A stretch of DNA of 64,000 bases. It comes from Vicinamibacterales bacterium. GTDB lineage: Bacteria > Acidobacteriota > Vicinamibacteria > Vicinamibacterales > SCN-69-37. The notes below the pieces were generated by a model. It ran no database searches and was not told where the DNA came from. It was given only the letters and a program-made list of their open reading frames with translations. Shown one piece after another: positions 14,424 to 50,514 of this stretch (its first letter is position 1; every line of letters begins with the position of its first letter). The translations under genes and the position numbers were made by a program. The stretch spans positions 996 through 64,995 of the forward strand of contig JAWKHR010000036.1 of assembly GCA_041394725.1 (NCBI GenBank). The letters are read 5' to 3'.

Positions 14424-14465
14424 GTCGCCACTTTATGGCCGCCCGATTTCGCGGCAGTTTCGCAC

Positions 14466-14483
14466 GTGTTAAATCGGTGTAAC
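14466..14483 (-). promoter_or_regulatory. Pho-box-like direct repeat GTTACAC-CGAT-TTAACAC (gene orientation) upstream of pstS
   Basis: 7+4+7 direct repeat, AT-rich in a GC-rich 67-bp intergenic region, 43-60 nt upstream of the pstS ATG. Confidence 0.5.
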
Positions 14484-14490
14484 GTGCCCG

Positions 14491-15246
14491 TCACCACTCC
14501 GACGAGCGCACCCGCGGGCTCCCCGACTCCTCCAGGAACTCGCCGATCTGGCGCCGCAGTTCCTCCTGGATCGAGAGGATCGGCTTGCGGCCCTCGAGGA
14601 CCCGGAACCCGAATTCCTCGGACATGGCCCCGTACTCCTTGAGCAGCGCGCGCTGGTAGGTCCGGAAGTTGTCGTAGATGTCGTCGCCGGCCTTCATGTC
14701 CATGCCGGACTCCCAGTACTCCATGCCGCCGCTCTCGAGCACGCGCCGCGCGAGCGCGTCGACGTCGATCTTCAGGTAGAAGACCAGGTGCGGGCTGATC
14801 GCGAAGCCGTACAGCTTGCGGATCCACTGGCTGTCCACGCCGCGGACCCCGGCGCGCGCGATGGCCGTGTAGATGTAGCGGTCGGCCAGGACGATGAAGC
14901 CCGCCTTGAGCGCCGGGATGATCTCCTTCTCGAGCCGGTCGGCGAAGTCGCACGCGTAGAGCAGCACGAACGTCAGCTTGTTGAGCGTGTTGCTCGACTT
15001 GGCCAGGTCGATCGTCGGCGCCATGAGCGGCGACCGCGTCCACCCGGTCTCCACCACGCCGTAGCCCTGGACCTCGAGCCACTCGCGGAGGAGCCGGATC
15101 TGCGTCGATCGGCCGACGCCGTCGGTGCCCTCGATGGCGATGATCTTGCCGGGGTAGCTGTCGATGTGGAGGTACGGCAGCCCGTGGCCGTAGTAGTGGC
15201 CGGGCGTGACGCCGCCGTGGGCGCCGGCTTCGGGATGCTCGCTCAT
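14491..15246 (-). CDS. Thymidylate-kinase-fold P-loop protein, paralogue 2 (Walker A reads GTDGVGRST)
   Basis: Tmk-like layout (P-loop, LADRYIYTAIAR). ATGA overlap with the upstream paralogue. The N-terminal part of the long ORF was rejected as non-coding. Confidence 0.65.
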   Translation of the reverse strand: MSEHPEAGAHGGVTPGHYYGHGLPYLHIDSYPGKIIAIEGTDGVGRSTQIRLLREWLEVQGYGVVETGWTRSPLMAPTIDLAKSSNTLNKLTFVLLYACDFADRLEKEIIPALKAGFIVLADRYIYTAIARAGVRGVDSQWIRKLYGFAISPHLVFYLKIDVDALARRVLESGGMEYWESGMDMKAGDDIYDNFRTYQRALLKEYGAMSEEFGFRVLEGRKPILSIQEELRRQIGEFLEESGSPRVRSSEW

Positions 15247-15917
15247 GAGGGCTGCTGCTCCAGTCGTTCGGAGACCAGGCGCCGGAAGACGCGCTGCTGG
15301 TCGGTGATGCTGCCCGTCGCGTCCACCACGGACAGGCCGTGCTCGGGCACGATGCGGTCGTATTCCTCGAGGACCTTCGACTGGAACAGCCGGAAGCTCT
15401 CGGTGGCGTTCGTGCTCCAGCCCATGTCGAGGCCGGCCTCGTAGAACTTCAGCTTCACGCGGCGCGCGAGCAGCCGGTCCAGCGAGACGTCGATCGTGAC
15501 GCGGAAGTAGACCGCGAGATCGGGCTTGACCGCGAAGCTGTACAGGTCGCGGACCCATTCGCGGTGGACGCCGCGCGCCACGTCGCGCGCGAACGCGGTG
15601 TAGGCGTAGCGGTCGGCGAGCACGATCATGCCGGCCTTGAGGGGCGGGATGATCTTGTAGAGCAGCCGGTCGGCGAAGTCGGTGGCGTGCAGCAGGCTGA
15701 ACGTCATGGGCGTGAGGGCGTTCTTCTTCTTGCCCGTCTTCGTGGCCGCCTTGACGAGCGCCGACGAATTCCACTCGGTGACGAACACCCGGTGCCCGCT
15801 CGCCGCCAGCCACTTCGCCAGCAGGCCGAGCTGCGTCGTCTTACCGGACCCGTCGATGCCCTCGACGACGAACAGCCGGCCGGGATACGTGTGGGGCGCG
15901 TCGAGCCTGTTCAGCAT
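15243..15917 (-). CDS. Thymidylate-kinase-fold P-loop kinase, paralogue 1
   Basis: GIDGSGKTTQ Walker A and LADRYAYTAFAR (DRY motif). A purine-rich RBS precedes the ATG at 15917. Confidence 0.7.
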   Translation of the reverse strand: MLNRLDAPHTYPGRLFVVEGIDGSGKTTQLGLLAKWLAASGHRVFVTEWNSSALVKAATKTGKKKNALTPMTFSLLHATDFADRLLYKIIPPLKAGMIVLADRYAYTAFARDVARGVHREWVRDLYSFAVKPDLAVYFRVTIDVSLDRLLARRVKLKFYEAGLDMGWSTNATESFRLFQSKVLEEYDRIVPEHGLSVVDATGSITDQQRVFRRLVSERLEQQPS

Positions 15918-27819: not shown

Positions 27820-30564
27820 CTAGAAGCCGATGAAGCCGAACTGGAACTGGATGACGCGGCCCAGCGTGAACTCGCGCTGGGTCAGGCCGCCCTGGCTGAA
27901 CCGCACCGGCCGGTTGCCGAGGTTCTCGGCCGTGAACCGCACGTTGAACCGCTGGTGCAGCCGCGCCGAGACGACGAGGTCCACCGTGGCCCGGCCGTCC
28001 TCGTAGATGTCCGGCAGGCCCAGCGACCCGACGTCCGCGATCCGCTCGCCCTGGTAGTTGACGAGCAGGCGCGCCGACGCGCGGTCGTTGAACACCTCGA
28101 AGACGCTGTTGAAGAGGTGCTTCGACGTGCCGGCCAGCGGCCGCTCGAGCGAGGTCAGGACGTTCGTCTGGAACGACTCGAGCGTGATGCTCGAATCGAC
28201 GAAGGTGTAGTTGCCGCCGACCATGAAGTGCTCGGCCACCTGCTTCCGCGCTTCCAGCTCGATCCCGACGTTCCGGGCCGACTTCGCGTTCGTGTAGGAC
28301 GTCCGGAGCTGCGCGGTCGGCTCGACGAACCGCTCGATCGGCTTGTCGAACGCCTTGAAGAACACGCTCGCCGCCACGACCTCGGTCGCGCCCGGGAACC
28401 ATTCCCAGCGCGCGTCCACGTTGCGGATGAGCGACCGCTCCAGGTCCGGGTTGCCGACCGTCGCGCGGCCGCCCACGATGTCGGTGAACTCGAACGGCGA
28501 CAGCTCGCGGAACTCCGGGCGGTTGACCGTCTGGCTGAAGCCCACCCGGAAATTCTGGTTGCCGCCGAGGTCCTGCACGAAGTTCACCGACGGGAAGACG
28601 TCGGTGCTCCTGATTTCACCGCGGATGAGCTCCGGGTCGTCGCCCAGGTCCACCGCGAACAGGTCCTGCGTGTCCACGGTCTGGCGGAAGTTCTCGACGC
28701 GGACGCCCGCGATGAGCCGCGCGCGCGAGGTCAGCGACAGGTCCACCATGCCGTAGCCGGCGCCCACGCGCTGCTCGGCGGAGTAGAAGTCGGTGGCGCG
28801 GGTCTCCTCGCGCAGCTCGAAGTGCGTGCCGATGTTGGCGGGCGAGTAGAGCGCTTCGGGGCCGGGCGTCAGGTCGAAGCGGACGACGTCGATCGGCACG
28901 AGCCGGAAGCGGCGCGACGAGAAGTCGCGTTGCCGGCGCGAGACGGCCGGGCCGAACTTCACCTGCATCGGCAGGCCGTGGATGCCCGCGAACGCCGCGC
29001 TCCAGTTGAGCGTGAAGTCCCACGCGTCCTCGTCGAGCGCGTTGAACATGTGGAGGCCGCTCTGCGACTCGTCCGCGAGCTGGTACTCGCCCGAGATCTC
29101 CTCGTAGAGGGTTTCGCGCATGTCCGGCTCGTCACGCGTGGACTTCGCGTAGGAGAGCCGCCACTCGACCCGGCTGTTCGACGCGCCGGGCACGTAGTGG
29201 TCGCCCCCGAACTGGACCGACCGCAGGCCCTCCTCGAGCCGCAGCAGCCGGGCGTTGCGCAGGTTGCGCGACGCGTCGGAGTTGAAGCCCTCGAACGTGC
29301 GCGCCTCGCGGCGCACCTTGTTCGAGGTGAACGTCTGGAGCGTCAGCCGGTGCGACGGGCTGAACGCATAGCCCACGTTCGCCAGCGCCGACGACGAGCC
29401 CGTGGCCGCGCCGACCCGGTAGTCGTAGGTCGAGAACTCGGTGAGCTGCCCGGAGCTGTCCGTCCGGTAGTAGTTCTGCGCCTCGTCCTGGTAGTCGTGC
29501 TTGTAGGACTGGTTGAAGCCCAGCGAGAGGCCGAACTTGCCCCAGCGGTTGCCGTAGGTGCCGCTCAGCGCCTGGTAGGGCCCGCCGCTCTCGGCCAGGG
29601 GCGTCCACGCGTTGGGCAGCTCCTCGGCGAAGTGCTTCAGTTCCAGCTGGCTGACGCCGAGTTCCGGCGTGAACAGGCCGCCGCGCGTGACCCGGCGGCT
29701 CGGGAAATCGCCCGGCAGCGCGAGGTCGCCGTCGGCCAGACCGAGCCAGTCGCTGCCGCCGCTGTCGAAGTCGATCACGTCCTGGCCCCAGGCCTGGCTG
29801 TTGCCGCCAAAGCCGTAGGAGACGTTGGCCAGCTGCCGCGACGGCAGCCGCGTCGGCACGATCTCGACCAGGCCGCCCGCGAATTCGGCCGACCGGTCCG
29901 GCGTGTAGCTCTTGACGACCGTCACGCTGTCGAGCAGGCCCGCCGGGAACATGTCGAGCGAGACCACCTTCTTCTCCGGCTCGGTCGAGGGCAGGATCGA
30001 GCCGTTCAAGGTCGTGTTGCTGTAGCGCTCGCCGAGGCCGCGGACGAAGACGTACTGGTCGCCGACGACCGACAGCCCGGTCACGCGTGCCAGCGCGGAC
30101 GCCGCGTTCGAGTCGGCGTTGGCCTTCATTTCCTGCCCGCCGAGGTTGTCGGTGATCGCGTTCGACCGGCGCCGCTCGAGGAGCTGCGCCGCCAGGCTGG
30201 AGGTCTCGGCGTCCACGGTCTGGCCCGTGACGGTGATCTCCTCGGAGAACCCGGCCAGCGCCAGCGTGACGTCCACGGTCCGCACGACGTCAGCCGCGAC
30301 GTCGACGTCCACCGTCCGGTCGTCGAAGCTGGGCATCGTGACCTTGATCTGCTGCTTGCCCAGCGGCAGGGTCAGGGCATAACGACCGTCGATGTCGGTG
30401 TAGACCACCGTCGGCGTGCCGACCACCGAGACGGTGACACCAGGCAGCGGCTGCCCCTGGACGGCGTCGAGGACGCGGCCCGTGATGCGCCCGGTCGTCT
30501 GGGCGAGGGCAGGGGTGCCCAGGGCGAGAACACACAGCGCCAGGGCGAGGCGGCGAAGAAACAT
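27820..30564 (-). CDS. TonB-dependent receptor with N-terminal CarboxypepD_reg domain
   Basis: Signal peptide, CarboxypepD_reg domain (GRITGRVLDAVQGQPLPGVTVSV), plug, a long barrel and a terminal F (GFIGF). Confidence 0.9.
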   Translation of the reverse strand: MFLRRLALALCVLALGTPALAQTTGRITGRVLDAVQGQPLPGVTVSVVGTPTVVYTDIDGRYALTLPLGKQQIKVTMPSFDDRTVDVDVAADVVRTVDVTLALAGFSEEITVTGQTVDAETSSLAAQLLERRRSNAITDNLGGQEMKANADSNAASALARVTGLSVVGDQYVFVRGLGERYSNTTLNGSILPSTEPEKKVVSLDMFPAGLLDSVTVVKSYTPDRSAEFAGGLVEIVPTRLPSRQLANVSYGFGGNSQAWGQDVIDFDSGGSDWLGLADGDLALPGDFPSRRVTRGGLFTPELGVSQLELKHFAEELPNAWTPLAESGGPYQALSGTYGNRWGKFGLSLGFNQSYKHDYQDEAQNYYRTDSSGQLTEFSTYDYRVGAATGSSSALANVGYAFSPSHRLTLQTFTSNKVRREARTFEGFNSDASRNLRNARLLRLEEGLRSVQFGGDHYVPGASNSRVEWRLSYAKSTRDEPDMRETLYEEISGEYQLADESQSGLHMFNALDEDAWDFTLNWSAAFAGIHGLPMQVKFGPAVSRRQRDFSSRRFRLVPIDVVRFDLTPGPEALYSPANIGTHFELREETRATDFYSAEQRVGAGYGMVDLSLTSRARLIAGVRVENFRQTVDTQDLFAVDLGDDPELIRGEIRSTDVFPSVNFVQDLGGNQNFRVGFSQTVNRPEFRELSPFEFTDIVGGRATVGNPDLERSLIRNVDARWEWFPGATEVVAASVFFKAFDKPIERFVEPTAQLRTSYTNAKSARNVGIELEARKQVAEHFMVGGNYTFVDSSITLESFQTNVLTSLERPLAGTSKHLFNSVFEVFNDRASARLLVNYQGERIADVGSLGLPDIYEDGRATVDLVVSARLHQRFNVRFTAENLGNRPVRFSQGGLTQREFTLGRVIQFQFGFIGF

Positions 30565-34957: not shown

Positions 34958-35989
34958 ATGCCTGCCCGGCGATGGCTCGTGACGACGATGGCCGCGGCCG
35001 CGCTCGGCGCCGCCGTGACCGCGGCGCCCCCCGTCCAGGTGGACGTGACGCGCCTCGGGCCGCAGGTGGGCGACCGGGTCGCCGACTTCCAGCTGGTGGA
35101 CGCGGCCGGGCGTCCGCAGTCGATTCGATCGGCCGCCGGCCCGAAGGGCACGATGCTCGTGTTCTTCCGGTCGGCCGACTGGTGACCGTACTGCCGCACG
35201 CAGCTGGTCGAGCTGCAACGCAATCTTCCGGTGATCCGGCGCGAGGGCTACGGGCTCCTCGCGCTGAGCTACGACAGTCCGGAGACGCTCCGCGCCTTCG
35301 CCGCGCGGCACGGGATCACGTTCCCGCTCGTGCCGGACCCGGGGTCGAAGACGATCGACGCCTGGGGCCTCCGCAACGAGGCCGCGCGCGGCCGCGAGGC
35401 GGGCATCCCGCATCCGGGCACGTTCATCATCGACCGCGACCTCCGCGTGGTCGAGCGCGCCTTCGAGCAGTCGTACCAGAACCGCGCGACCGCGGCCGGG
35501 CTGCTCGCGCGGCTCGGCGCGACGGTCGCGCCGAAGTCACCGACCGACGTCGCCGGCGGCCAGCTCTCGGTGAAGCTCGGCGTCAGCGACGCCACCGCCG
35601 CGCCCGGCGAGAAGTTCTCGCTCCTGCTCGACGTGACCCCGAAGCCGAAGATGCACGTCTACGCGCCGGGGCAGCCGGGCTACATCCCGATCGCGCTCAC
35701 GCTCGACCCGACCGGCGAGTTCACCGCCGGCGAGACGCGGTATCCGACACCCGGGACGTATTTCTTCGCGCCGCTGAACGAGACCGTCAAGGTCTACGGC
35801 GAGCCGTTCCGGCTGACGCGCGACGTCACGCTGGCGCTGACGCCGGAATTCCGGCGCCGGGCGGCCGCGCGCGAGACGCTCGTCATCACCGGGTCGCTCG
35901 AGTACCAGGCGTGCGACGACGCGGTCTGCTACCGGTCGGAGACCCTGCCGGTGGCCTGGTCGGTCGCCCTCACGCCGTTCATCCGCTGA
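34958..35989 (+). CDS. Secreted peroxiredoxin-like (AhpC/TSA-redoxin) / DsbD-N-terminal-like fusion with an in-frame TGA (35183-35185) at the active-site Cys position; candidate selenoprotein
   Basis: ORFs 34958..35185 and 35231..35989 are in the same frame. The junction reads FFRSADW-TGA-PYCRTQL, where this family has WCPYC. The C-terminal domain ends YQACDDAVCY (DsbD-alpha/DsbC-like). Confidence 0.6.
35200..35216 (+). promoter_or_regulatory. Candidate bacterial SECIS hairpin GCAGCU-GGUCG-AGCUGC
   Basis: 6-bp perfect stem with a 5-nt loop containing GGU, starting 14 nt after the UGA. Confidence 0.35.
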
Positions 35990-36016: not shown

Positions 36017-36703
36017 ATGACCTTCGTCACGCTGGCCGCCTCGGCGGTGCTGCTCGGGTTCCTGCACGGTCTGGGGGCCGATCACCTGATGGCGATCGCG
36101 GCCCTGTCGATCGACGGCCGGGGTGACGACCGGCGGCATTCCCGGGTCCTGCGCACCGCCGTCGGGTTTGCCGCCGGGCACGCGATCCTGCTCGGGCTGG
36201 GCGCCACGGCGGCGCTGCTCTTCGGGTGGGTGCTGCCCGCGGCGGCCGAGTCGGGGGCCGAGGCGCTCGGCGGCGTGCTGCTCATCGGCCTGGGCGGCGC
36301 GGGGCTGTGGACCGTGCTGTCGGGGCGGACGTACGGCCACATCCATCCGGTGGACGAGACCGACCGCTGGCACCTCCACCTGACCGCGACGGGCGGGCAC
36401 CCGACGGGCCAGCACGCGGCGGCGTCGAACCTGCCGACCCTCATGGGCGCGGTGTTCGCGGTGAGCAGCCTGCGCGCGCTGATGCTGCTGGCGCCGTTCG
36501 GCGGCGACGTGCGGTCGTTCAGCCTGCCCGTGGTCCTGCTGCTCGTCGTGCTCTTCGGCGTCGGGATCCTGCTCTCGATGTCGCTCTTCGGCGTCGTCCT
36601 CGCGCGCGTCCTCTCGCTGAAGGTCGTCGAACACCTCGGCCGCGCCGCCGCCGTCCTGGTCGCGCTGGCGTCGATCGTGCTCGGAGCGTACTGGGTGCTG
36701 TAA
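36017..36703 (+). CDS. NiCoT/NicO-like metal (Ni/Co) transporter
   Basis: HGLGADH (HX4DH signature) in TM1. A His-rich loop (YGHIHPVDETDRWHLHLTATGGHPTGQH). Six predicted TM helices and no Cys. Confidence 0.6.
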   Translation: MTFVTLAASAVLLGFLHGLGADHLMAIAALSIDGRGDDRRHSRVLRTAVGFAAGHAILLGLGATAALLFGWVLPAAAESGAEALGGVLLIGLGGAGLWTVLSGRTYGHIHPVDETDRWHLHLTATGGHPTGQHAAASNLPTLMGAVFAVSSLRALMLLAPFGGDVRSFSLPVVLLLVVLFGVGILLSMSLFGVVLARVLSLKVVEHLGRAAAVLVALASIVLGAYWVL

Positions 36704-39034: not shown

Positions 39035-40620
39035 ATGCCGGTGCTCTTCGGCTGTCTCGTCCGGGTGCCCGGCGGCCCGGCTGCCCCGGGCACGCTCGAA
39101 ACGGTCGCGCGCGCCTGTTCGCCGCGTGTCGAGCCGGCCGGCGACGACCGGGTCGTCTTCGATGCCTCGGGCCTGCGGCGGGTGCTTGGTCCGCCCGAGG
39201 ACATCGCGCGCGAGGTGATCCGCCTGGCGGAGCAGCAGGGCCTGGCCGTGCGGCTGGCGTTGTCGGGGACGATGACGGCGTCGTGGCTGCTGGCGCACGC
39301 AGGCCCCGCCGTGACCCCGGCCGTGACCGTCGTCGCGCCCGGCGCCCAGGCGGCGCGACTGGCGCCGCTGCCGGTGACGGCGCTGCTGACGCTGCCGGAG
39401 TGCCTGGCGCCGGCCGATCGCCGGACGGCTGAGGCGCCGCCCGGCGGGGCGCGTGCGCGCGACGTCTCGCCGGCACACCGGGACATCGCGGTCGCCGGCA
39501 GGCCCGGCATTACCGCATGGCGCCAGGACCGGAGGCTGGGGCGCGCGCGCCGGCCGATGCGCCACGCGACGGGGCAGGCGCGCGCGCGGCGCTGGACCGG
39601 TCGAGCGCGCGCGCGGCGCTGGATGCACTGCGCATCGAGCGGGCCGTGCTCGAGCGGTTCGATCGCTGGGGCGTGCGCACGCTGGGCGACGTCGCGCGCC
39701 TGCCGCGCGCCGATGTCCGCGCGCGGCTCGGGCTGGCCGGGCTGCGCATTCACCAGGCGGCGTGTGGCGAGGACGCGACGGTCCTCGTGCCGGCGGACGC
39801 CCCGCGGGTGTTCCTCGAGCGCGCGGAGCTCGAGTGGCCGATCGAGGGGCTCGAGCCGCTGTCGTTCGTGCTGGCGCGGCTGTGCGACGGGCTGTCCACC
39901 GCGCTCGAGCGGGCCGACCGCGGCGCCATTGCCGTCACGACGACGCTCCGGCTGGTCACGCGGCAGGTGCACGTCCGGACGCTGCACCTGCCGGCGCCGA
40001 TGCGCGACGCGCGCGTGCTGCGAACGCTCGTCGGCCTCGATCTCGAGTCGCATCCGCCCGCCGCGGGCATCGACGTGGTGGAGGTCGAAGCCGAGGTCGC
40101 GCCCGGCCGGATCACCCAGGGCTCGCTGCTCGAGCACAGCCTGCCGACGCCCGAGGATCTCGCGACGCTCGTGGCCCGGCTCGGCGCGTTGATGGGCGAA
40201 TCCCGCGTCGGCGCGCCGGCGCTCGTGGACACGCACGACGAGCGCGCGTTCGCGATGGCGCCGTTCCGCGCGACCCCGCCGGAGGCCGGATCCCGGACGC
40301 CGGGCGCCTCGGTCTCCGTGATGCCGGAATCCCCGAGCCCCGGGGCGTCGTGCCTCCGCCGGTTCCGCCTGCCGCTCGCCACCCGCGTCGTCGTCGATCG
40401 TGGCACGCCGGTGCGGGTCGTGCCGTCCTCGCGCGGCGTGCCTGGCGGCGCGGTGGTGGCGTGTGCCGGTCCCTGGCGATCGTCGGGGCACTGGTGGACG
40501 TTCGATCGATCCGCGTGGGATCGCGACGAGTGGGACGTCGAGGTGTCCGAGGGCGCGGTGATCCGGCTGTCGCGTCACCGCGCGACGGGGCAGTGGGCGA
40601 TTGAAGGCATCCTGGATTGA
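39035..40620 (+). pseudogene. imuB: ImuB-like Y-family polymerase homologue, one frameshift as assembled
   Basis: The N-terminal ~130 aa (MPVLFGCLV...VVFDASGLRRVLG...) are in one frame and the C-terminal 367 aa (ORF 39517..40620) in another. The total span is not a multiple of 3. The shift lies between 39433 and about 39600. Confidence 0.7.
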
Positions 40621-40646
40621 GCCCGCCGTTTTTCTCCGACCCCGAC

Positions 40647-43600
40647 ATGTATCTCGAGCTGCACACCGCATCGGCCTTCTCGTTTCTCGACGGCGCGTCG
40701 CTGCCCGCCACGCTCATCGAGCGCGCGGCCGATCTCGGCTATCCGGCGATCGCGCTGCTCGATCGCGACGGCCTGTACGGCGCGCCGCAGTTCTACCGTG
40801 CCGCGAAGGCCGCCGGCCTCAAGGCCATCGTCGGCGCGGAACTCACGATCGGTCCGCCCGATGATCCCCGGGCGTCGTCGTCGGGGGGGCGGGCGCCGTC
40901 GTCAGGTTCCCGAACGCCGAGCGCCGACCGCCGACCGCCGTCGTCGTTCTCCCCGCCCAGTGCCCAGCGCCCGGCGCCTGCGCTCTGGACGCTGCCCGTG
41001 CTCGTCCAGAACGCCGAGGGCTACCGGCAGCTGTGCCGGGTCATCACCCGGGCGAAGCTCCGGTCGCCGAAGGGCGAATGCCGGCTGACGCTGGCCGATC
41101 TCGAGGGCCAGGCGGGGGGACTCGTCGCGCTCGTCGGGCGCGAGGCGTTGCGGGCGGAACGGCACGGCGTCGGCGGGCTCGTGGATCAGCTCGTCGGCAC
41201 GTTCGGCCGGACGAACGTCTGGGTCGAGCTGCAGCGGCACCTCCGGCGCGACGAGCAGGGCGATCTGCAGGCGCTCGTCGATCTGGCGTCGGCGTTCCGC
41301 GTGCCGGTGATGGCGTCGAACGGCGTCCGGTTCGCGTCGCCGGAGGCGCGGCCGCTCTACGACGTCCTCACCAGCATCCGGCTGAAGACGACGCTCGCGC
41401 GGGCGGGGCGGCGGCTGGCGGTCAACGCGGAGCGGTACCTGAAGCCGCCGGAGGTCATGGCGCGCATGTTCTCGGACCTGCCGCAGGCGCTCGCGGGCAC
41501 CGAGGCGCTGGCCGAGCGGCTCGAGTTCACGCTCGCGAACCTCGGCTACCGGTTTCCGGACTATCCGGTGCCGGCGGGGGAGACGCAGGCGTCGTTCCTG
41601 CGACGGCTGACGCAGGTCGGCGCGCGGGATCGGTACCGGCCGTATCACGACCGCGCGCGCGCGCAGATCCGGCGCGAGCTCGACCTGATCGAGAAGCTCG
41701 ACCTGGCCGGCTACTTCCTCATCGTCTGGGACCTCGTCAACTTCTGCCGGCAGCAGGGGATTCTCGTGCAGGGGCGCGGGTCGGCCGCCAACAGCGCGGT
41801 CTGCTACGCGCTCGGGATCACCGCGGTCGATCCGGTCGGCATGGAGCTGCTGTTCGAACGCTTCCTGTCGGAGGAGCGCGGCGAGTGGCCGGACATCGAC
41901 CTGGACCTGCCGAGCGGCGACCGGCGCGAGCGTGTCATCCAGTACGTGTACGAGCGCTACGGGACGCTGGGGGCCGCGATGACGGCCAACGTCATCTCCT
42001 ACCGCGGCCGGAGCGCCGCGCGCGAGGTGGGGAAGGTGCTCGCGCTCGACACGGAGGAGATCGACCGGCTCGCGCGGCTGATGAGCCAGTTCGAGTTCGT
42101 CGACCCGGAGGAGACCATCGGCCGCAACCTCCGGGAATCGGGCCTCGACCCGGACGACCCGCGCTACGCGCAGTTCGCGAGGCTCTGGCGCGAAATCCAG
42201 GACCTGCCGCGCCACCTCGGCCAGCACTCGGGCGGCATGGTCGTCTGCCAGGGGCGGCTGGACGAGGTCGTGCCGCTCGAGAACGCCTCGATGCCGGGGC
42301 GGGTCGTCGTGCAGTGGGACAAGGACGACTGCGCGGACCTGGGGATCGTAAAGGTGGATCTGCTCGGCCTCGGGATGATGGCGGCGCTCGAGGACGCATT
42401 GTCGATCATCAACACGAACGACGCCGGGCCGAAGGTCGATCTCGCCCATCTTCCCCCGGACGACCCCGCCGTCTACCGCATGCTGCAGGAGGCCGACACG
42501 GTCGGCGTGTTCCAGGTGGAGTCGCGCGCGCAGATGGCGACGCTGCCGCGGCTGCGGCCGGAGCACTTCTACGATCTCGTCGTCGAGGTCGCGATCATCC
42601 GGCCCGGGCCCATCGTCGGCAACATGGTGCATCCGTACCTCCGGCGGCGGCGCGGGCAGGAACCGGTGACGTATCCGCACCCGCGGCTCGAGCCGGTGCT
42701 GAAGCGGACGCTCGGCGTGCCGCTGTTCCAGGAACAGCTGCTGCGGATGGCGATGGTCGTCGCGGACTTCAGCGGCGGCGAGGCCGAGGAACTGCGCCGT
42801 GCGATGGGCTTCAAGCGATCCGTCAGGCGGATGCAGCAGATCGAGACGAAGCTGCGGGCCGGCATGGCCCGGAACGGCATCACGCCCGAGGCGGCCGACC
42901 AGATCGTGCAGTCGATCACGTCGTTCGCGCTCTACGGGTTTCCCGAGTCGCACGCGGCGAGCTTCGCGCTCATCGTCTATGCCAGCGCGTACCTCAAGGC
43001 GCACTACCCGGCGGCGTTCTACACGGCGCTGCTCAACAACCAGCCGATGGGGTTCTACCACCCGGCCACGCTGGTCAAGGACGCCCAGCGCCGCGGCGTC
43101 CGGTTCGCGCCGGTGGACGTACAGGTCTCGGGCTGGGACTGCGCGGTGCAGGACGACGGCGCCATCCGCCTCGGCCTGCGCTGTGTCCGCGGCCTTCGCG
43201 AGGAGGCGGGTCGGAGGATCGAGGCCGCGCCGCCCGGGGACGTCCGAGCGCCGAGCGCCGAACGCCGAGCGCCGCCCGTGAACTCACCAGTGCCCGGTGC
43301 CCAGCGCCCAGTGCCGACAAGATTCACGTCGATGGACGACCTCGTCGCCCGCGCCCGGCTCCGGCAGGACGAGGTGCGCCTCCTGGCCGAGGTCGGCGCG
43401 CTCGTCTCGCTCGGCGGCGATCGCCGATCCGCGCTCTGGCAGGCCGAACGCGCCGGCCGCCCGGCTGGGCCGCTGCTGCACGAGATCGGCGATCAACGTC
43501 GGCGGTCGGCGGTCGGCGCGCGGCTCTCGGGCGCCACGTCTCACGACGAGCCGACGGGCGCCGAACACGACGACCCTCGGGCGCCGACCGCCGACGGCCG

Positions 43601-44093
43601 AGCGCCGGAACGAGCACCGTCTTCCCAAGCGCCGAACGCCGAGGACCGAGCGCCGGAACGATCGCCCCTCCCGCCGATGTCCCTCCTCGAGCGGGTGAAG
43701 GCGGACTACGACGGCACGGGGCTCACGATCGGGCCGCACCCGATGGCGCTCGTCCGGGCGTCGCTCGCGCCGATGGGGGTGGCGCGCGCGGCGGATCTCA
43801 GGCGGATCCGGACCGGCCGGCGCGTGCGCGTGGCCGGCGCGGTCATCACGCGGCAGCGGCCCGGCACCGCCAAGGGGTTCGTGTTCCTCTCGCTCGAGGA
43901 CGAGACGGGCATCTCGAACATCATCGTCAACCCGGACACGTTCGCCGCCTTCAAGCGGACGATCGTGGACGAGCCCTACCTCATCGTCGAGGGCGTGCTC
44001 CAGGACCAGACCGGCGCGATTTCGATCAAGGCCGATCGCGTGGACGCGCTCCGCTACGGCGGTCCCGAAGCCGACTCGCACGACTTCCACTGA
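40647..44093 (+). CDS. dnaE2: Error-prone DNA polymerase III alpha-like DnaE2
   Basis: PHP domain (YLELHTASAFSFLDGAS), polymerase core (GRGSAANS...DIDLDL...HSGGMV) and an OB fold at the C-terminus. Carries three low-complexity insertions. Confidence 0.9.
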   Translation: MYLELHTASAFSFLDGASLPATLIERAADLGYPAIALLDRDGLYGAPQFYRAAKAAGLKAIVGAELTIGPPDDPRASSSGGRAPSSGSRTPSADRRPPSSFSPPSAQRPAPALWTLPVLVQNAEGYRQLCRVITRAKLRSPKGECRLTLADLEGQAGGLVALVGREALRAERHGVGGLVDQLVGTFGRTNVWVELQRHLRRDEQGDLQALVDLASAFRVPVMASNGVRFASPEARPLYDVLTSIRLKTTLARAGRRLAVNAERYLKPPEVMARMFSDLPQALAGTEALAERLEFTLANLGYRFPDYPVPAGETQASFLRRLTQVGARDRYRPYHDRARAQIRRELDLIEKLDLAGYFLIVWDLVNFCRQQGILVQGRGSAANSAVCYALGITAVDPVGMELLFERFLSEERGEWPDIDLDLPSGDRRERVIQYVYERYGTLGAAMTANVISYRGRSAAREVGKVLALDTEEIDRLARLMSQFEFVDPEETIGRNLRESGLDPDDPRYAQFARLWREIQDLPRHLGQHSGGMVVCQGRLDEVVPLENASMPGRVVVQWDKDDCADLGIVKVDLLGLGMMAALEDALSIINTNDAGPKVDLAHLPPDDPAVYRMLQEADTVGVFQVESRAQMATLPRLRPEHFYDLVVEVAIIRPGPIVGNMVHPYLRRRRGQEPVTYPHPRLEPVLKRTLGVPLFQEQLLRMAMVVADFSGGEAEELRRAMGFKRSVRRMQQIETKLRAGMARNGITPEAADQIVQSITSFALYGFPESHAASFALIVYASAYLKAHYPAAFYTALLNNQPMGFYHPATLVKDAQRRGVRFAPVDVQVSGWDCAVQDDGAIRLGLRCVRGLREEAGRRIEAAPPGDVRAPSAERRAPPVNSPVPGAQRPVPTRFTSMDDLVARARLRQDEVRLLAEVGALVSLGGDRRSALWQAERAGRPAGPLLHEIGDQRRRSAVGARLSGATSHDEPTGAEHDDPRAPTADGRAPERAPSSQAPNAEDRAPERSPLPPMSLLERVKADYDGTGLTIGPHPMALVRASLAPMGVARAADLRRIRTGRRVRVAGAVITRQRPGTAKGFVFLSLEDETGISNIIVNPDTFAAFKRTIVDEPYLIVEGVLQDQTGAISIKADRVDALRYGGPEADSHDFH
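40912..40978 (+). repeat. Heptanucleotide array inside dnaE2 (GAACGCC GAGCGCC GACCGCC GACCGCC ... CAGTGCC CAGCGCC CGGCGCC)
   Basis: Read directly. Encodes part of a Pro/Ser/Arg-rich insertion after GAELTI. Confidence 0.8.
43246..43315 (+). repeat. Ten phased heptamers inside dnaE2 (GAGCGCC x2, GAACGCC, GAGCGCC, 2 spacer heptamers, CAGTGCC, CGGTGCC, CAGCGCC, CAGTGCC)
   Basis: Read directly. 70 nt in 7-nt phase. A degenerate third array lies at about 43540-43670. Confidence 0.8.
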
Positions 44094-44124
44094 ACGGCTG
44101 AGCGCCCGCCGGGGACCCGGTATC

Positions 44125-45111
44125 ATGTCCCCCGTGTCCGCGCCGCTCCGCCTGGCCTTCCTCGGCTGTGGCTTCATCACCCGGGTCCACAGCCGCCACC
44201 TGCGGGCGCTCGGGCGCGACCTGACCTGGAGCTACGCGAGCCGCGACGCCGCGAAGGCCGAGGACTTCCGGCGCCGGCTGGGCGGCGCGAAGAGCTACGG
44301 CGACTACCGGGCCGCGATTGCCGACCCGGAGGTCGACGCGGTCGTCGTCGCGGTGCCGCCGGCGCTCCATCGAGACCTCGCGCTGGAGGCGCTGGCGGCG
44401 GGCAAGCACGTGCTCGTCGAGAAGCCGGCGTTCCCGGCGATGGCCGACTACGAGACCGTCCGCGCGGCCCGCGAGGCCGCGGGGCGGACCGTGCTCGTCG
44501 GCGAGAACGACCACTACAAGCCGCTGGCGGTCTGCCTGCGCGGCCTGCTCGCGAACGGGGTGATCGGCGACCTGGTCTTCGGGCACTTCGTGACGATCGC
44601 GAAGCGTCTGAAGACGGCCGACGACTGGCGCAACGACGAGACGATGGCGGGGGGCGACGCGTTCTTCGAGGAGGGCATCCACTGGCTGCACGTCGCGGGC
44701 AGCCTCGGCCCGGCGATCACCCGGGCGCACGGGCTGCGGCCGATCCTGCCGCCGGCCGGGCCGGACCGCCGGCGCAAGAGCATGCTCGTGGCCTTCCACT
44801 ACGACACCGGTGCGGTCGGCGCGCTCTACTACAGCCGCGAGGTGCCGTCGCTCTTCCGCGGCCTGCGCCTGTCGAAGCTGTTCGGCCGCGACGGCGTCAT
44901 CTCGTTCGAGTCGAACGGCGCCCTGGTCGTCGTGCGCGGTCGCGGGCTGCCGCGCGCCTACCTGCCGGGATTCCGCGACATCCGGGGCTACCAGGCGATG
45001 TATCGTGATTTCGTCCGCGCCGCGCGGACCGGCGTGCCGCCCGAGATGAGCCTCGAGCGGGCCATGGACGACCAGCGCCTGATGGACCAGATCTACGCCA
45101 GCCTCGACTGA
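44125..45111 (+). CDS. Gfo/Idh/MocA-family oxidoreductase
   Basis: LAFLGCGFI Rossmann start and EKP motif (VLVEKPA). An alternative leaderless GTG start at 44134 lies 7 nt after TATCAT. Confidence 0.85.
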   Translation: MSPVSAPLRLAFLGCGFITRVHSRHLRALGRDLTWSYASRDAAKAEDFRRRLGGAKSYGDYRAAIADPEVDAVVVAVPPALHRDLALEALAAGKHVLVEKPAFPAMADYETVRAAREAAGRTVLVGENDHYKPLAVCLRGLLANGVIGDLVFGHFVTIAKRLKTADDWRNDETMAGGDAFFEEGIHWLHVAGSLGPAITRAHGLRPILPPAGPDRRRKSMLVAFHYDTGAVGALYYSREVPSLFRGLRLSKLFGRDGVISFESNGALVVVRGRGLPRAYLPGFRDIRGYQAMYRDFVRAARTGVPPEMSLERAMDDQRLMDQIYASLD

Positions 45112-45119
45112 CCGATCCG

Positions 45120-46718
45120 ATGACCGCCGATCGCTACGACATCATCATCATCGGCACCGGCGCGGGCGGCGGCACCATGGCCCGCGCGCTCGCGGGATCC
45201 GGGGCGCGGCTGCTCGTCCTCGAGCGCGGCGAGGCCGTGCCGCGCGAGGCCGCGAACTGGGACCCGGCCGTCGTCTGGCGCGAGCTGCGGTATCGCACGC
45301 GCGAGCGCTGGCTCGACGAGGCGGACCGCGAGTTCGTGCCTTACGCGCACTACGGCGTCGGCGGCAACACGAAGTTCTGGGGCAGCGTGCTGTACCGGCT
45401 GCGGCGCGAGGACTTCGGCGAGCTGGAGCACGAGGACGGCGTCTCGCCGGCCTGGCCGATCGACTACGAGACGCTCGCGCCCTGGTACGACCGCGCCGAG
45501 GCGCTCTACGAGGTGCACGGCGCCACCGGCGACGACCCGACGGAGCCGCCGCGCGGCCCGTACCCGTTCCCGGCTGTCGCGCACGCCCCCAACATGGCGC
45601 GGCTGGCCGCTGGGCTGCGCGGCCTCGGCCTGCACCCGTCGCCGCTGCCGCTCGGTCTCCGGCGTCCCGGTGAGCCGGGCGGGTGCATCCTGTGCCGCAC
45701 CTGCAACTCCTTCCCGTGCCGGCTTGGCGCGAAGAGCGACGCCGAGGTCTGCGGCATCGAGCCCGCCGCCGCGTCGGGTGACGTGACGCTCGAGACCGGC
45801 GCGTTCGTGCGCCGGCTCGTGACCGATCCCTCCGGCGCGCGCGTCGTCGCGGTGGAGGTCGAGCGGGGCGGCGAGGTCCGGCGCCTCGAGGCGGGGCTGG
45901 TCGTGGTCGCCTGCGGCGCCGTCAACTCGGCGGCCCTGCTGCTGCGGTCGGCGTCCGACCGGCACCCGGACGGCCTCGCGAACTCGTCGGGTCTGGTCGG
46001 CCGACGCTACATGGCGCACCTCGCGACGATGATGCAGGGGTTCTCGCCGTGGCGGGTCAACCGCGACGAGTTCCAGAAGACGCTCGCGATCAACGACTTC
46101 TACCTGCGCGGGCCGGACACCCGGTTCCCGCTGGGACAGATCCAGTCGCAGGGGCGGACGCACGCGGTGATGGCGAAGGTCGTCGGCGACGGCTGGCACT
46201 GGGGGCCGATCCGCTGGCGGCACATTCCGCTCTGGGCCTATGAGGCCTGGGTCTCGCGCGCCGTCGACTGGCTCGCGATGACCGAGGACCTGCCGCGGCC
46301 GGAGAACCGGGTCACGCTGGCGCCCGACGGCCGCGTGCGGCTGGCCTACCGGCCGAACAACGCGCGCGCGCACGCGCGCCTGGTCGAGGCGCTCCGCGGT
46401 CTGCTGCAGCAGCTGGGGTACTGGTCGCCGAGGGTGTTCGCGCACTCGACGGGCGCGCGCAACACGACGCACCAGTGCGGCACGCTGGTGTTCGGCCGGG
46501 ACCCGCGCATCTCGGTCCTCGATCCCTTCTGCCGGACGCACGACGTCGAGAACCTGTTCGTCGTGGACGCCTCGTTCTTCCCGTCGTCGGCGGCCGTGAA
46601 CCCGGCGCTGACGATCATCGCGCAGGCGCTGCGCGTGGCCGATCACATCCGGGGCGGCGACGGCGCGCGGGCGGCGGCGGCCACCGGGTCCGAATCCGTG
46701 GGACACTCCACGCACTGA
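45120..46718 (+). CDS. GMC-family FAD-dependent oxidoreductase
   Basis: YDIIIIGTGAGGGTMA FAD-binding motif and C-terminal GMC motifs (HQCGT..., VVDASFFPS). Confidence 0.85.
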   Translation: MTADRYDIIIIGTGAGGGTMARALAGSGARLLVLERGEAVPREAANWDPAVVWRELRYRTRERWLDEADREFVPYAHYGVGGNTKFWGSVLYRLRREDFGELEHEDGVSPAWPIDYETLAPWYDRAEALYEVHGATGDDPTEPPRGPYPFPAVAHAPNMARLAAGLRGLGLHPSPLPLGLRRPGEPGGCILCRTCNSFPCRLGAKSDAEVCGIEPAAASGDVTLETGAFVRRLVTDPSGARVVAVEVERGGEVRRLEAGLVVVACGAVNSAALLLRSASDRHPDGLANSSGLVGRRYMAHLATMMQGFSPWRVNRDEFQKTLAINDFYLRGPDTRFPLGQIQSQGRTHAVMAKVVGDGWHWGPIRWRHIPLWAYEAWVSRAVDWLAMTEDLPRPENRVTLAPDGRVRLAYRPNNARAHARLVEALRGLLQQLGYWSPRVFAHSTGARNTTHQCGTLVFGRDPRISVLDPFCRTHDVENLFVVDASFFPSSAAVNPALTIIAQALRVADHIRGGDGARAAAATGSESVGHSTH

Positions 46719-47233: not shown

Positions 47234-47337
47234 GGTCAGGTCTTGGATCGCAGCCTCGGCGGCGTCACGATGACGAAACTGAAATACGGTTTCATCATCG
47301 TCAGGCCGCCGAGGCTGCGATCCAAGACCTGACCCTA
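47231..47337. repeat. Inverted-repeat element (family A): ~49-nt arms (32 bp perfect) and 8-nt loop; the termini TAGGGTCAGG... supply TAG stops to both convergent genes
   Basis: 47231-47262 is the exact reverse complement of 47306-47337. Pairing continues with 3 mismatches to the loop TGAAATAC. The arm shares 26 nt with 2748-2855. Confidence 0.9.
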
Positions 47338-48618
47338 CAACTCCTTCGCCAGCGTCTCCATCGCGTCGCCGAACGTGTCGACTTCCTCGAGCGTGGTGTA
47401 GACGTTCGGCGTGATGCGGACGCCCTGGTACTCGGCGTGGCCGATCGGGGTGGCCAGGATGCGCCACTTCGACCAGAGGCGCGACGTGATGTCGCCCGGC
47501 TTCACGCCCTCGAAGCCGACCGTGCCGATCGCGCACGAGAGCTTCGGATCCAGGCTCGTGTGCAGCTGGACGCGCGGGATCTTCGTGAGGCGGTCGGCCC
47601 AGCGCGCCTTGAGGTAGCGCAGGCGCGCGGCCTTGCGCTCGACGCCGATGCCGTGGTGGAACGTCAGCGCCTCGGCGATCGCGTTGTGCGTCGCGGCGGG
47701 GTGCGTGCCGATCTCCTCGAACTTCCGGATGTTGTCCTTCAGCGAGGCCGGCGGCGGCTGCATCGCCCAGTGGTTCGCGATCCGGTCGGGCCGCACGTAG
47801 AGGAACCCGGTCCCGATGGGCGCCAGCAGCCATTTGTGCAGGCTCGTGCCGTAGTAGTCGCAGTCGAAGTCGCTCAGGTCGAAGGGGAAGTGCGCGTAGG
47901 CGTGCGCGCCGTCCACGATCGTCGTGATCCCGCGCGACCGGGCGAGCGCGCAGATCTCCTTCGCCGGGAAGATGTGGCCCGTCAGGTTCGTGATGTGGCA
48001 GAAGTGGATGACCCTCGTGGCCGGCGTGATCGCGGCCTCGAAGCGGCGCACGAGGTCGGCCTGCGCCGGCGGCACCGGGAACGAGATCTTCGTCAGCCTG
48101 ATGCCGTCGCGCGCGACCCGCTGGTCCCACGTCTGGAGCATCCGGCCGTAGTCCTGGTTGGTGGTCAGCACCTCGTCGCCGGGCTTCAGGTCGAGCCCGA
48201 GCTGGGCGATCTGGAGCGCCTCGCTCGCGTTGCGCGTGATGGCGATGTGCTCGGGATCCACGCCGGCGTCCGCCGCGAGCATGCGCCGCACGTTCTCGAT
48301 GCCCGGCTCGACGATCTGCCACATGTGGTACGCCGGCGCCTGGTTCGAGATGTCCAGGTACCGCTTCATCGCCTCGTGCACGACGCGCGGGCTGGGGCAG
48401 ACGCCGCCGTTGTTGAGGTTGATCATCGAGCGGTCGAGCGTGAATGCCTGCTGGACCTCGCGCCAGTAGAACTCGTCGCGCGCGACCTCCAGCGGATCCT
48501 GGGTGGCGACGGCCGCCGAGGCCTCGAGCAGCCGCGCGAGGCCGTCCGGGTTGAAGGTCGCGAGTGCCGTCGCGCCCACCGCGCTCGTCCGCCGCAGAAA
48601 CTGTCGTCGCGTGACCAT
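47335..48618 (-). CDS. Class V aminotransferase-fold PLP enzyme with twin-arginine signal peptide
   Basis: MVTRRQFLRRTSAVGATALA Tat motif. SLHKWL PLP-lysine motif. Isopenicillin-N-epimerase/cysteine desulfurase-like overall pattern. Confidence 0.8.
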   Translation of the reverse strand: MVTRRQFLRRTSAVGATALATFNPDGLARLLEASAAVATQDPLEVARDEFYWREVQQAFTLDRSMINLNNGGVCPSPRVVHEAMKRYLDISNQAPAYHMWQIVEPGIENVRRMLAADAGVDPEHIAITRNASEALQIAQLGLDLKPGDEVLTTNQDYGRMLQTWDQRVARDGIRLTKISFPVPPAQADLVRRFEAAITPATRVIHFCHITNLTGHIFPAKEICALARSRGITTIVDGAHAYAHFPFDLSDFDCDYYGTSLHKWLLAPIGTGFLYVRPDRIANHWAMQPPPASLKDNIRKFEEIGTHPAATHNAIAEALTFHHGIGVERKAARLRYLKARWADRLTKIPRVQLHTSLDPKLSCAIGTVGFEGVKPGDITSRLWSKWRILATPIGHAEYQGVRITPNVYTTLEEVDTFGDAMETLAKEL

Positions 48619-48679
48619 GGCCGTCTCCTGCGCGCCACCCGGATCCCGGCGCCGGCCGGGGCCCGGAGTCCGGCGCGTG

Positions 48680-49975
48680 CTACTGCTTGTACACCCGCCC
48701 GCCCTTCATCACGAACGCGACGCGGCGGAGCGCGCTGACGTCCGTCGCCGGATCGCCGGGGACCGCGACGATGTCCGCCTCGTAGCCGGCCGCGATCGTG
48801 CCAATCGTGTCGCCGAGGCCCATCGACGTGGCGGCCAGCGACGTCGCGCCGGTGATCGCGTCCATCGGCCGCTGTCCGGCGGCCACGCGCGCCACGATCT
48901 CCCGCGCGTTCTGCCCGTGCGCGCCGGCCACGGCGTCGGTGCCCATCGGCATCTTCAGGCCCGCGTCGAGCGCCTTCCTGAAGACGACGGCCAGGCCGGG
49001 CAGCGCCTCGCGCATCGCCGCGAAGCCCTCCTCGTTGAAGTTGCCGCTGCCCAGGAACTTGTCCGTGTTCTCCAGGTAGTTCTGCAGCACCAGCCCGATG
49101 TTCGGGTCGAAGTACACGTCGGCCGCCTTCATCGCCGCGATCGCGGCATCGTCGGCGAACAGGCCGTGCTCGATCTGGGTGCAGCCGGCCTTGACGGCCG
49201 CGATGATCGAGTCGGAGCTGTGCGCGTGCACGAGCGTGCGCAGGCCCTGCGCCTTTGCCTCGCCGCACACGGCGTCGATCTGCTCCTGGGTCACGTTCAT
49301 CCGGCCGCCGTCACGGATGCTCGCAGAGGCGAAGAACTTGATGAGGTCGGCGCCGCTCGCCTTGAGCTGGCGCACCGACTCGCGGAGTTGGTCGGGCGTC
49401 CGGTTGCCGCCCTGGAGCTGGCCGGCGGACGTCAGGATGCGGGGGCCGACGATGAGGTTGGCGGCGATGGCGTCGCGGAGCGCGGGATCACGGTTCCAGC
49501 CGACCGACTGCACCGTGGTCACGCCCGCCATCAGCGTGGCGCGCGCGTTGTCCTGGATGGCCTTCGCCTCCCAGTCGGCCGGCACGTTCGCCTCGCCGTA
49601 CTTGCCGCCGGGCCCGAAGTACCAGTTCAGGTGGACGTGCACGTCGATGAGGCCGGGCAGGACGGTCGCGTTGCCGAGTTCGTACGTGTACGGCCCGCCG
49701 GTGGCGGGCCCGACCGCGGTGATGCGCGAGCCCTGGATGGTGACGACCGCGTCGGTCGTCATGCCGCCGCGGCCGTCGATGACGCGCGCGGCGTGGATCG
49801 TCACCGGCGTGCGTCCGCGGCCCCGTCCGCCCTGCACCGCGTCGGTCGCGGCCATCGCGCTGGTTCCCGGCATTCCGTCAGGCCCGGCGGCGCGGCCGCG
49901 GAGCGCGGGGCCAAACCCCGCGAGGACGAGCAGCACGAGCAACGGGCCGGCGGCACGCGGAAGCGATCGGGTCAC
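48680..49975 (-). CDS. Secreted amidohydrolase-family metallohydrolase
   Basis: PGLIDVHVHL metal-binding motif, HAH and D motifs downstream. Signal peptide after the GTG at 49975 (VTRSLPRAAGPLLVLLVLAG). Confidence 0.75.
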   Translation of the reverse strand: MTRSLPRAAGPLLVLLVLAGFGPALRGRAAGPDGMPGTSAMAATDAVQGGRGRGRTPVTIHAARVIDGRGGMTTDAVVTIQGSRITAVGPATGGPYTYELGNATVLPGLIDVHVHLNWYFGPGGKYGEANVPADWEAKAIQDNARATLMAGVTTVQSVGWNRDPALRDAIAANLIVGPRILTSAGQLQGGNRTPDQLRESVRQLKASGADLIKFFASASIRDGGRMNVTQEQIDAVCGEAKAQGLRTLVHAHSSDSIIAAVKAGCTQIEHGLFADDAAIAAMKAADVYFDPNIGLVLQNYLENTDKFLGSGNFNEEGFAAMREALPGLAVVFRKALDAGLKMPMGTDAVAGAHGQNAREIVARVAAGQRPMDAITGATSLAATSMGLGDTIGTIAAGYEADIVAVPGDPATDVSALRRVAFVMKGGRVYKQ

Positions 49976-50067
49976 TGGGCACCTTCGTGAGTGGAGTCGT
50001 GCGTATATTAGCCGCGATCGAGGCCGCCGGGGCAACCGGGCGAGACGGGGGCGACCGGCGGGCCGGA

Positions 50068-50073
50068 TACAAT
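50068..50073 (+). promoter_or_regulatory. -10-like hexamer TACAAT 9 nt upstream of the ATG at 50083
   Basis: Consensus-like hexamer with no Shine-Dalgarno before the start codon. Confidence 0.3.
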
Positions 50074-50082
50074 GCTCGGCCG

Positions 50083-50514
50083 ATGTCCAAGTCACGGGTC
50101 TTCGTCTCTCCGACGGGCAAGCGTCTCGTGCGCAAGCCGTCGCGCATCGCGGGCTGGGGCGTGTATGCCGGCGAGCGCATCACCAAGAACTCACGCATCA
50201 TCGACTACGCGGGCGAGAAGATCTCGGCGGCGGAGGCGGACAAACGTGAGCACCAGTACCAGGCGAAGGGCCGGATCTGGTGTTTCACGCTCAACCGCCG
50301 CTGGGTGCGCGACGCCGCCGTCGGCGGCAACTGGGCGCGCTACATCAACCACCGGTGCAAGCCGAACTGCTACGTCCAGATCATCGGCGACACGATCTGG
50401 ATCCGCGCGGCCCGGAACATCGAGCGGGGCGAGGAGCTGTCCTACGACTACTGCACCGGCGGCGAGGCAGGCATCTCATGCAAGTGCCGTCCGGGCTGCA
50501 AGACGGTGATCTGA
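50083..50514 (+). CDS. SET-domain protein (lysine methyltransferase fold)
   Basis: GWGVYA...RYINHRCKPNC...GEELSYDY...CKC..GC: SET and post-SET Cys motifs. Confidence 0.75.
   Translation: MSKSRVFVSPTGKRLVRKPSRIAGWGVYAGERITKNSRIIDYAGEKISAAEADKREHQYQAKGRIWCFTLNRRWVRDAAVGGNWARYINHRCKPNCYVQIIGDTIWIRAARNIERGEELSYDYCTGGEAGISCKCRPGCKTVI

Follow-up and report, generated by a model that had tools for sequence, protein, structure and literature searches.

A putative UGA-encoded selenocysteine in an exported peroxiredoxin-fold/DsbD-alpha-like fusion protein of a Vicinamibacterales bacterium

Does a TGA in the middle of a redox motif end a gene, or does it encode selenocysteine (Sec)? The question is raised by a locus in 64,000 nucleotides of DNA from a Vicinamibacterales bacterium (assembly GCA_041394725.1, contig JAWKHR010000036.1, positions 996 to 64,995), a 64-kb stretch that was analyzed whole and is called the window here. 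Within it, two open reading frames (ORFs) of a redoxin-like gene are separated by a single TGA. Comparison with relatives makes it very probable that positions 34958-35989 encode one exported selenoprotein of 343 residues, with the UGA decoded as Sec. The elements on which this reading turns are the following.

34958..35989, plus strand: putative complete selenoprotein coding sequence, 343 codons and a stop, UGA read as Sec (U76); one frame with one TGA, orthologues open on both sides.
35183..35185, plus strand: predicted UGA Sec codon (U76), residue 1 of the UPYC redox motif; from the TGA/Cys alignment and the coding signature.
35192..35194, plus strand: TGC for Cys79, the partner Cys of the UxxC motif; aligned with the peroxidatic Cys of AhpE and nearly invariant in the family.
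35200..35216, plus strand: hairpin resembling a selenocysteine insertion sequence (SECIS), with a 6-bp stem GCAGCU/AGCUGC and the loop GGUCG; conserved in TGA forms.

Translation of 34958-35989 (+) gives 343 codons in which the TGA at 35183-35185 is the sole internal stop. The ORFs 34958..35185 and 35231..35989 occupy the same frame, and the TGA lies in the context ...MLVFFRSADW*PYCRTQLVELQ...; the preliminary description of this DNA had held that the two ORFs share a frame broken only by this codon, and the translation bears it out. On either strand of the window, this is the only in-frame TGA flanked on both sides by a strong coding signature, defined by the G+C content of the three codon positions (GC3 > 0.85 and GC3 > GC1 > GC2).

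The evidence that carries the reading comes from orthologues. These were collected from 80 loci belonging to different GTDB species, nearly all of them metagenome-assembled genomes (MAGs) of Acidobacteriota/Vicinamibacterales, which together with the window give 81 genes. The codon aligned to 35183 is TGA at 70 of the 80 loci and TGT or TGC at the other 10. Over the 22 codons that precede the TGA, differences among TGA forms are distributed as 16492:16629 synonymous to non-synonymous in frame, compared with 4209:31194 and 2362:31324 when the same stretch is read in the two shifted frames. To judge from these ratios, the DNA 5' of the TGA is under protein-coding constraint in this frame. At every locus not cut short by a contig end, 69 or more open codons precede the TGA, and downstream of it all 81 genes are full length. 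No orthologue among the 81 is split or decayed at the TGA site. The preliminary description had looked to orthologues on both counts, asking for Cys or TGA at this codon and for a break or pseudogene at the same place; the first is what the orthologues display, and the second occurs in none of the 81 genes.

The hairpin immediately 3' of the TGA is the second line of evidence. Its parts are GCAGCU at 35200-35205, the loop GGUCG at 35206-35210 and AGCUGC at 35211-35216, so that the hairpin starts 14 nt and the loop 20 nt from the UGA, and the GU of the loop falls at nucleotides 25-26 counted from the U of UGA. RNAalifold, applied to an ungapped alignment of 71 TGA forms, predicts exactly this 6-bp stem. 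The complete stem of six pairs can form in 70/71 TGA forms, compared with 1/10 Cys forms (Fisher p = 3.8e-10). The central GU of the loop and its Val codon are kept in 100% of Sec forms, whereas the GU is lost in 5/10 Cys forms; likewise, the Gln codon that follows the stem is CAA in 63/71 Sec forms and CAG in 8/10 Cys forms. Within the stem, 60 distinct sequences have G-C at pair 21-31, whereas 5 have A-U and 1 has G-U; the A-U pair results from two compensatory substitutions, CAG to CAA and CUG to UUG, each of which is synonymous. Pair 18-34 shows one A·C mismatch, in a single sequence. The argument for a SECIS is carried by the contrast between Sec and Cys forms at synonymous sites. An earlier proposal of a SECIS-like hairpin at this position, with its loop about 20 nt from the UGA, proves exact in its coordinates, and the stem is conserved specifically in TGA forms. 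By comparison with relatives, both the UGA codon and the hairpin are under selection.

The hairpin resembles the SECIS of Escherichia coli fdhF, the prototype of bacterial Sec insertion elements, the sequence of which was confirmed in a search of 5,419 E. coli genomes. Both are intragenic hairpins lying just 3' of the UGA and presenting GGUC in the apical loop; numbered from the U of UGA, the GU falls at nucleotides 23-24 in fdhF, compared with 25-26 here. G23 and U24 of the fdhF element contact SelB. The stem described here differs from that of fdhF in being a plain helix of 6-7 bp that has neither the bulged U nor the extended lower helix. Hairpins 3' of the UGA of selD at four of the loci (L008, L016, L046 and L051) are heterogeneous, only that of L008 having a similar GGUC loop, and no lineage-wide SECIS consensus is therefore drawn.

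The distribution of Sec and Cys within the family is scattered. On a neighbor-joining tree, Cys forms arise in at least four places, a pattern that fits repeated exchange between Sec and Cys and not one decayed lineage. Two Cys forms, L032 (10184) and L033 (2037), are tree neighbors of Sec forms and keep 6/6 and 5/6 of the hairpin pairs, respectively; on sequence grounds, these hairpins look like 'fossil' SECIS elements left after a recent replacement of Sec by Cys. The Sec form L068 (10175), for its part, is nested among Cys forms.

Protein databases reflect the same codon in another way. The homologues retrieved by a protein search fall into two classes, one full length (~337 aa) with WCPYC and the other made up of shorter entries, mostly ~240-260 aa, of which those inspected start downstream of the motif. 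These shorter entries account for 71 of the best 120 protein-database homologues and cover 62-81% of the query. The inspected ones begin 3' of the UGA, except for one that begins MLVFF and has Cys, and they carry labels such as 'hypothetical protein' or 'DsbC/DsbD-like'. Such entries are to be expected where gene callers halt at a Sec codon.

Several observations weigh against a functional Sec codon and have to be set beside this evidence. ARAGORN found no tRNA-Sec in the 64-kb window, Rfam at gathering thresholds matched nothing at all in it, and tblastn with acidobacterial SelA, SelB and SelD found no selA, selB or selD there. The best orthologue is only 73% identical to the window gene. Covariation in the hairpin is thin, being confined to one pair, since apart from the single A·C mismatch the remaining stem pairs do not vary; four of the six are invariant and say nothing for or against pairing. 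The peptide encoded here, TQLVELQ, is itself conserved, which could account for some of the conservation at the nucleotide level. Folded as a single sequence, the 68 nt from the UGA are no more stable than dinucleotide shuffles (z = +0.54), and the minimum-free-energy structure favors an alternative pairing that involves the UGA itself. At the 71% G+C of the window, moreover, 5.4% of window positions and 51 of 650 TGA triplets have a perfect 6-bp hairpin that begins 8-20 nt further on. Finally, when ORFs within ~5-6 kb of the gene were clustered, with the clustered neighbors named by inspection only, no conserved neighbor that would name an electron donor or substrate recurred in more than 11 of the 80 loci plus the window.

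The alternative that survives best, improbable as we judge it, is that the family is a true selenoprotein family in which this particular genome has lost Sec decoding, leaving a recent relic or truncated products only. It draws on the missing machinery in the window and on the several switches from Sec to Cys in the family, which make Sec use look unstable. Against it, the gene displays no decay: the hairpin retains 6/6 pairs and its GU loop, and the frame of 343 codons is intact. Moreover, any sel gene lies within ~10 kb at only 5/80 loci, so the genes are usually elsewhere in the genome and their absence from the window is expected. The lineage does possess Sec machinery, at times adjoining this gene. 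A tRNA-Sec is encoded 0.1-2.8 kb from the orthologue at four loci (L016, L046, L048 and L051), as identified by ARAGORN and by Rfam RF01852 with scores of 59-74 bits (cut-off 47). At L046, the TGA-containing orthologue is followed immediately by a selC-selA-selB-selD cluster (11150-15592), with scores of 604 bits for selA (TIGR00474), 369 bits for selB (TIGR00475) and 371 bits for selD (TIGR00476), all greatly exceeding the NCBIfam cut-offs; the genes are arranged likewise at L051. The selD gene of L046 itself contains an in-frame TGA (AAG*AAK) at the position of E. coli Cys17, and its product is, as read from this alignment, a Sec-containing SelD. From these relatives we infer that the genome under study decodes Sec and possesses selA, selB, selC and selD.

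Some further observations concern the sel genes and the searches for them. The nearest relatives of the L046 SelA (11286-12656) among the matches listed come from Deltaproteobacteria and Binatia MAGs (L081-L084) at 61-65% identity; this non-acidobacterial kinship could be a sign that the sel cluster moved horizontally, or could be produced by the scan itself. In the window, ten large ORFs compared with Pfam proved unrelated to selA, selB or selD. ARAGORN reported a 92-nt 'tRNA-Phe' at 29248-29339 (+), which lies inside a minus-strand ORF of 931 codons with a strong coding signature and has no Rfam tRNA match; it is probably a false positive. A class-V aminotransferase is encoded at 47338-48705 (-) (PF00266, E 9e-41). 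The PF00266 family includes cysteine desulfurases and selenocysteine lyases; the enzyme encoded here does not belong to the Sec-insertion machinery.

It is still less probable that the UGA is read by another route, namely a tRNA-Sec-like tRNA-Cys (selC*), an acidobacterial allo-tRNA acting as an opal suppressor, or near-cognate read-through, with Cys or Trp inserted. Such tRNAs have been described, allo-tRNAs are known from Acidobacteria (PMC5389517), and the UGA of all Sec forms is followed by C, a leaky context. However, selC* has been reported only in other phyla (PMC5389517), and the tRNA with a UCA anticodon in relatives matches the Rfam tRNA-Sec model and adjoins selB, selD and selA, the last of which makes Sec on that tRNA. 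Simple suppression, in addition, would need no conserved hairpin of the SelB type.

Little probability attaches to the view that the gene is a pseudogene or that its TGA arose from TGC or TGT by an error of sequencing or assembly. Cys forms of the gene exist, and the quality of the window sequence may be imperfect, for ORFs elsewhere in it overlap as frameshifted genes do. Nevertheless, 70 independent assemblies, each from a different species, share this TGA, their genes run to full length with frames intact on both sides, and the hairpin is conserved specifically in TGA forms. The overlaps themselves involve same-strand, high-GC3 ORFs that succeed one another end to end in different frames at 1-2786 (+), 7271-9959 (-), 40605-46718 (+) and 47335-50179 (-), as where a citrate synthase ORF (8334-9959) overlaps the ORF at 7271-8518. 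This is the pattern expected of indel errors or of real frameshifts, and it agrees with an earlier remark that the errors in this window are indels. A general reassignment of TGA to Trp or Gly (genetic codes 4 and 25) has a negligible probability and is ruled out by the single TGA with coding sequence on both sides and by the use of TGA as the commonest stop, closing 21 of the 32 confident ORFs of the window; nothing except the in-frame TGA itself favors it, and homologues have Cys at the aligned position rather than Trp or Gly.

If the UGA is read as Sec, as we consider very probable, what would the protein be? Four further features describe its architecture.

34958..35035, plus strand: predicted N-terminal signal peptide, about residues 1-26 (MPARRW, a hydrophobic stretch, AAPP), with an approximate cleavage site; read from the sequence.
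35066..35452, plus strand: peroxiredoxin (Prx)-fold domain (AhpC/TSA, Redoxin) with UxxC, residues 37-165; from Pfam.
35525..35986, plus strand: DsbD-alpha-like domain of immunoglobulin fold, residues 190-343; from Pfam, an AlphaFold model and PDB fold matches.
35912..35929, plus strand: Cys pair C319-x4-C324 (YQACDDAVCY); both Cys invariant in 16, 62 and 48 homologues.

The N-terminus of every orthologue begins with positive charge followed by a hydrophobic stretch, and the RR pair seen here is not conserved, so that a signal of the secretory (Sec) rather than the Tat type is the likelier. The translation, with Cys in place of the stop, matches PF00578 (AhpC/TSA) with E 4.4e-27 and 94.9 bits against a cut-off of 26, and PF08534 (Redoxin) with E 5.6e-16; NCBIfam has no dedicated model for the selenoprotein that scores above its cut-off. 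Among solved structures, the N-terminal domain is closest to Mycobacterium tuberculosis AhpE, BCP-type peroxiredoxins and ResA. With canonical peroxiredoxins (AhpE, BCP/PrxQ) the domain has the fold in common, and it shares ~30% identity with AhpE over ~140 residues. In the alignment with AhpE, C79 corresponds to the peroxidatic Cys and U76 to the conserved Thr of PxxxTxxC. The domain departs from canonical peroxiredoxins in that the catalytic Pro is replaced by Arg, the Thr by Sec and the Arg before GTF by Pro in this alignment, and the family consensus RSADW[U/C]PYC ... GIP[HF]PGTF contains the same replacements. Since the Pro and Arg of peroxiredoxins are missing, the domain has a Prx fold but would not be a canonical peroxidase. 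By these sequence comparisons, it is a Prx fold with a UxxC center of the thioredoxin type. In thioredoxin-fold oxidoreductases, the N-terminal residue of the CxxC motif is the attacking nucleophile. For the full-length protein, a 64% identical Cys homologue, P0001, was modeled instead; its AlphaFold model has a predicted local distance difference test score (pLDDT) of 92 and a predicted template-modeling (TM) score (pTM) of 0.87; only the C-terminal domain was modeled from the window sequence.

That C-terminal domain resembles the alpha domain of DsbD. Residues 214-329 match PF11412 (DsbD_N) with E 4e-7 and 30.5 bits against a cut-off of 25, an assignment also precomputed for most homologues. 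The model of the C-terminal 154 residues has a pLDDT of 95.5, and its top eight PDB fold matches are E. coli and Neisseria meningitidis DsbD-alpha and the N-domain of ScsB (E 6e-5 to 9e-4, probability 1.00). The DsbD chains give target-normalized TM scores of 0.55-0.67 and the ScsB chain, which is longer, 0.38, and root-mean-square deviations of 4-6 Å indicate a distant relationship. A profile of the domain run against PDB sequences found no DsbD, so the kinship with DsbD-alpha is remote and is linked only by Pfam and fold search. C319 and C324, near the C-terminus of the domain, are presumed from their conservation to form a second redox center; they may be the counterparts of C103 and C109 of E. 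coli DsbD, the redox-active pair that a gamma-type thioredoxin domain reduces.

Most of the protein features named in the preliminary description stand after this analysis. The signal peptide agrees with the sequence and with the hydrophobic N-termini of all orthologues, and the pairing of a redoxin domain with a C-terminal DsbD-alpha domain is borne out by Pfam and by the fold matches. The placement of the TGA at the catalytic Cys needs qualification: the codon does specify the first residue of UxxC, and is Cys or TGA in orthologues, but it aligns with the Thr of peroxiredoxins and not with their peroxidatic Cys.

The preferred reading suggests the following mechanism. By the standard bacterial route, the in-frame hairpin at 35200-35216 would recruit SelB carrying Sec-tRNA(Sec) to the UGA at 35183-35185; Sec insertion itself is what we infer from the comparison of relatives. 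The mature protein would have two redox centers, U76-P-Y-C79, of thioredoxin type on a Prx fold, and C319/C324 in the DsbD-alpha-like domain. Once exported, the protein may pass electrons between its UxxC and DsbD-alpha-like domains; these electrons would enter the envelope through a membrane transporter of the DsbD/CcdA/ScsB type and would then be delivered to oxidized envelope proteins or small oxidants. Sec would serve as a more reactive nucleophile that resists over-oxidation.

The most likely role is that of a periplasmic thiol-disulfide reductase relay, by analogy with the transfer from the gamma to the alpha domain of DsbD and with the reduction by ScsB of PprX, a periplasmic peroxiredoxin of Caulobacter (PMC3322552). 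The protein shares with the DsbD and ScsB hubs an alpha-type domain of immunoglobulin fold, a Cys pair near the C-terminus and a periplasmic thioredoxin-fold domain of CxxC type. Unlike DsbD (alpha-beta-gamma) and ScsB, it has no transmembrane beta domain, and its thioredoxin-fold domain precedes the alpha domain, is derived from a peroxiredoxin and would bear Sec. A bolder proposal, which we regard as rather unlikely, is that the Sec-bearing Prx-fold domain and the DsbD-alpha-like domain constitute a self-contained 'gamma-alpha' relay that docks on a separate membrane protein of the CcdA/DsbD-beta type. Such a split, selenium-dependent DsbD hub would act in soil Vicinamibacterales as the principal reductase of the envelope, or as a reductase of peroxides or sulfenates. 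If this were true, an abundant clade of soil bacteria would depend on selenium supply for redox homeostasis in its envelope, given that 70 of the 80 species keep Sec.

The neighborhood of the gene adds a few observations. A polytopic membrane protein of 228 aa with a His-rich loop (GHIHPVDETDRWHLHLTATGGHPTGQH) is encoded at 36017-36703 (+), 28 nt after the stop of the putative selenoprotein, and a homologue occupies the same downstream position at six loci (L017, L018, L053, L059, L062 and L077). It matches no significant Pfam or NCBIfam family, NicO reaching only E = 0.4, and may be a metal transporter. About ten loci (L004, L010, L028, L066 and others) have, on the same strand and 1-1.6 kb upstream, ORFs that resemble an extracytoplasmic function (ECF) sigma factor and a multi-pass membrane protein. 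At five loci, a nearby ORF like a pyridine-nucleotide-disulfide reductase ends in ...CCAG and resembles MerA (L056 6683-8071). Both of these groups were named by eye.

Selenoproteins of this kind are not new. 'Prx-like' UxxC selenoproteins were reported in 2004-2005 and defined as PF00578 proteins in which a thioredoxin-like UxxC replaces the TxxC/TxxU of peroxiredoxins (PMC1088965); the family is named in Kryukov & Gladyshev 2004 and in Zhang & Gladyshev 2005 and 2008. 'Prx-like 1 (pfam00578, UxxC)' was listed in 2008 among the abundant selenoprotein families of the Global Ocean Sampling (GOS) data (PMC2398784), and the table of a 2026 review includes a 'Prx-like thiol:disulfide oxidoreductase, PF00578, UxxC' predicted with high confidence (PMC13188914). 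The earlier assertion that UxxC and Prx-like proteins are established selenoprotein classes agrees with these three sources, and the window protein, having a PF00578 domain with UxxC, corresponds to the family as defined. Two GOS reads labeled '#Prx-like 1' in supplementary file 3 of PMC2398784, JCVI_READ_900765 and JCVI_READ_1599685, both read ...FHRSADWUPYCKAQLVELQ..., and the latter has the C-terminal ...TLDYQACDDAICY (DYQACDDAICY) as well. Compared by eye in their printed sequences, the '#Prx-like 1' reads share SADWUPYC..QLVELQ, ISYDS, FPLLSD, PGTF and DYQACDD with the window protein; on these shared motifs, reads 900765 and 1599685 are plainly orthologues of the window gene. The word 'DsbD' does not occur in the main text of PMC2398784, and the published Prx-like family papers searched mention neither a DsbD-alpha-like C-terminal domain nor the dominance of Sec forms in soil Vicinamibacterales or the occasional adjacency of selCABD.

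The window gene is a member of a selenoprotein family that is already known, and selenoprotein biology is unchanged by it. The practical consequence is one of annotation. Gene callers split or truncate such genes, so the redox center of an abundant envelope protein in soil Acidobacteriota is invisible in standard annotation. Recognition of the gene would mark its source genome as a Sec user, and would add a well-supported example of a SECIS from a lineage with 71% G+C. It also draws attention to a fusion protein in which a Prx-like domain and a DsbD-alpha-like domain may work together in the envelope of these bacteria.

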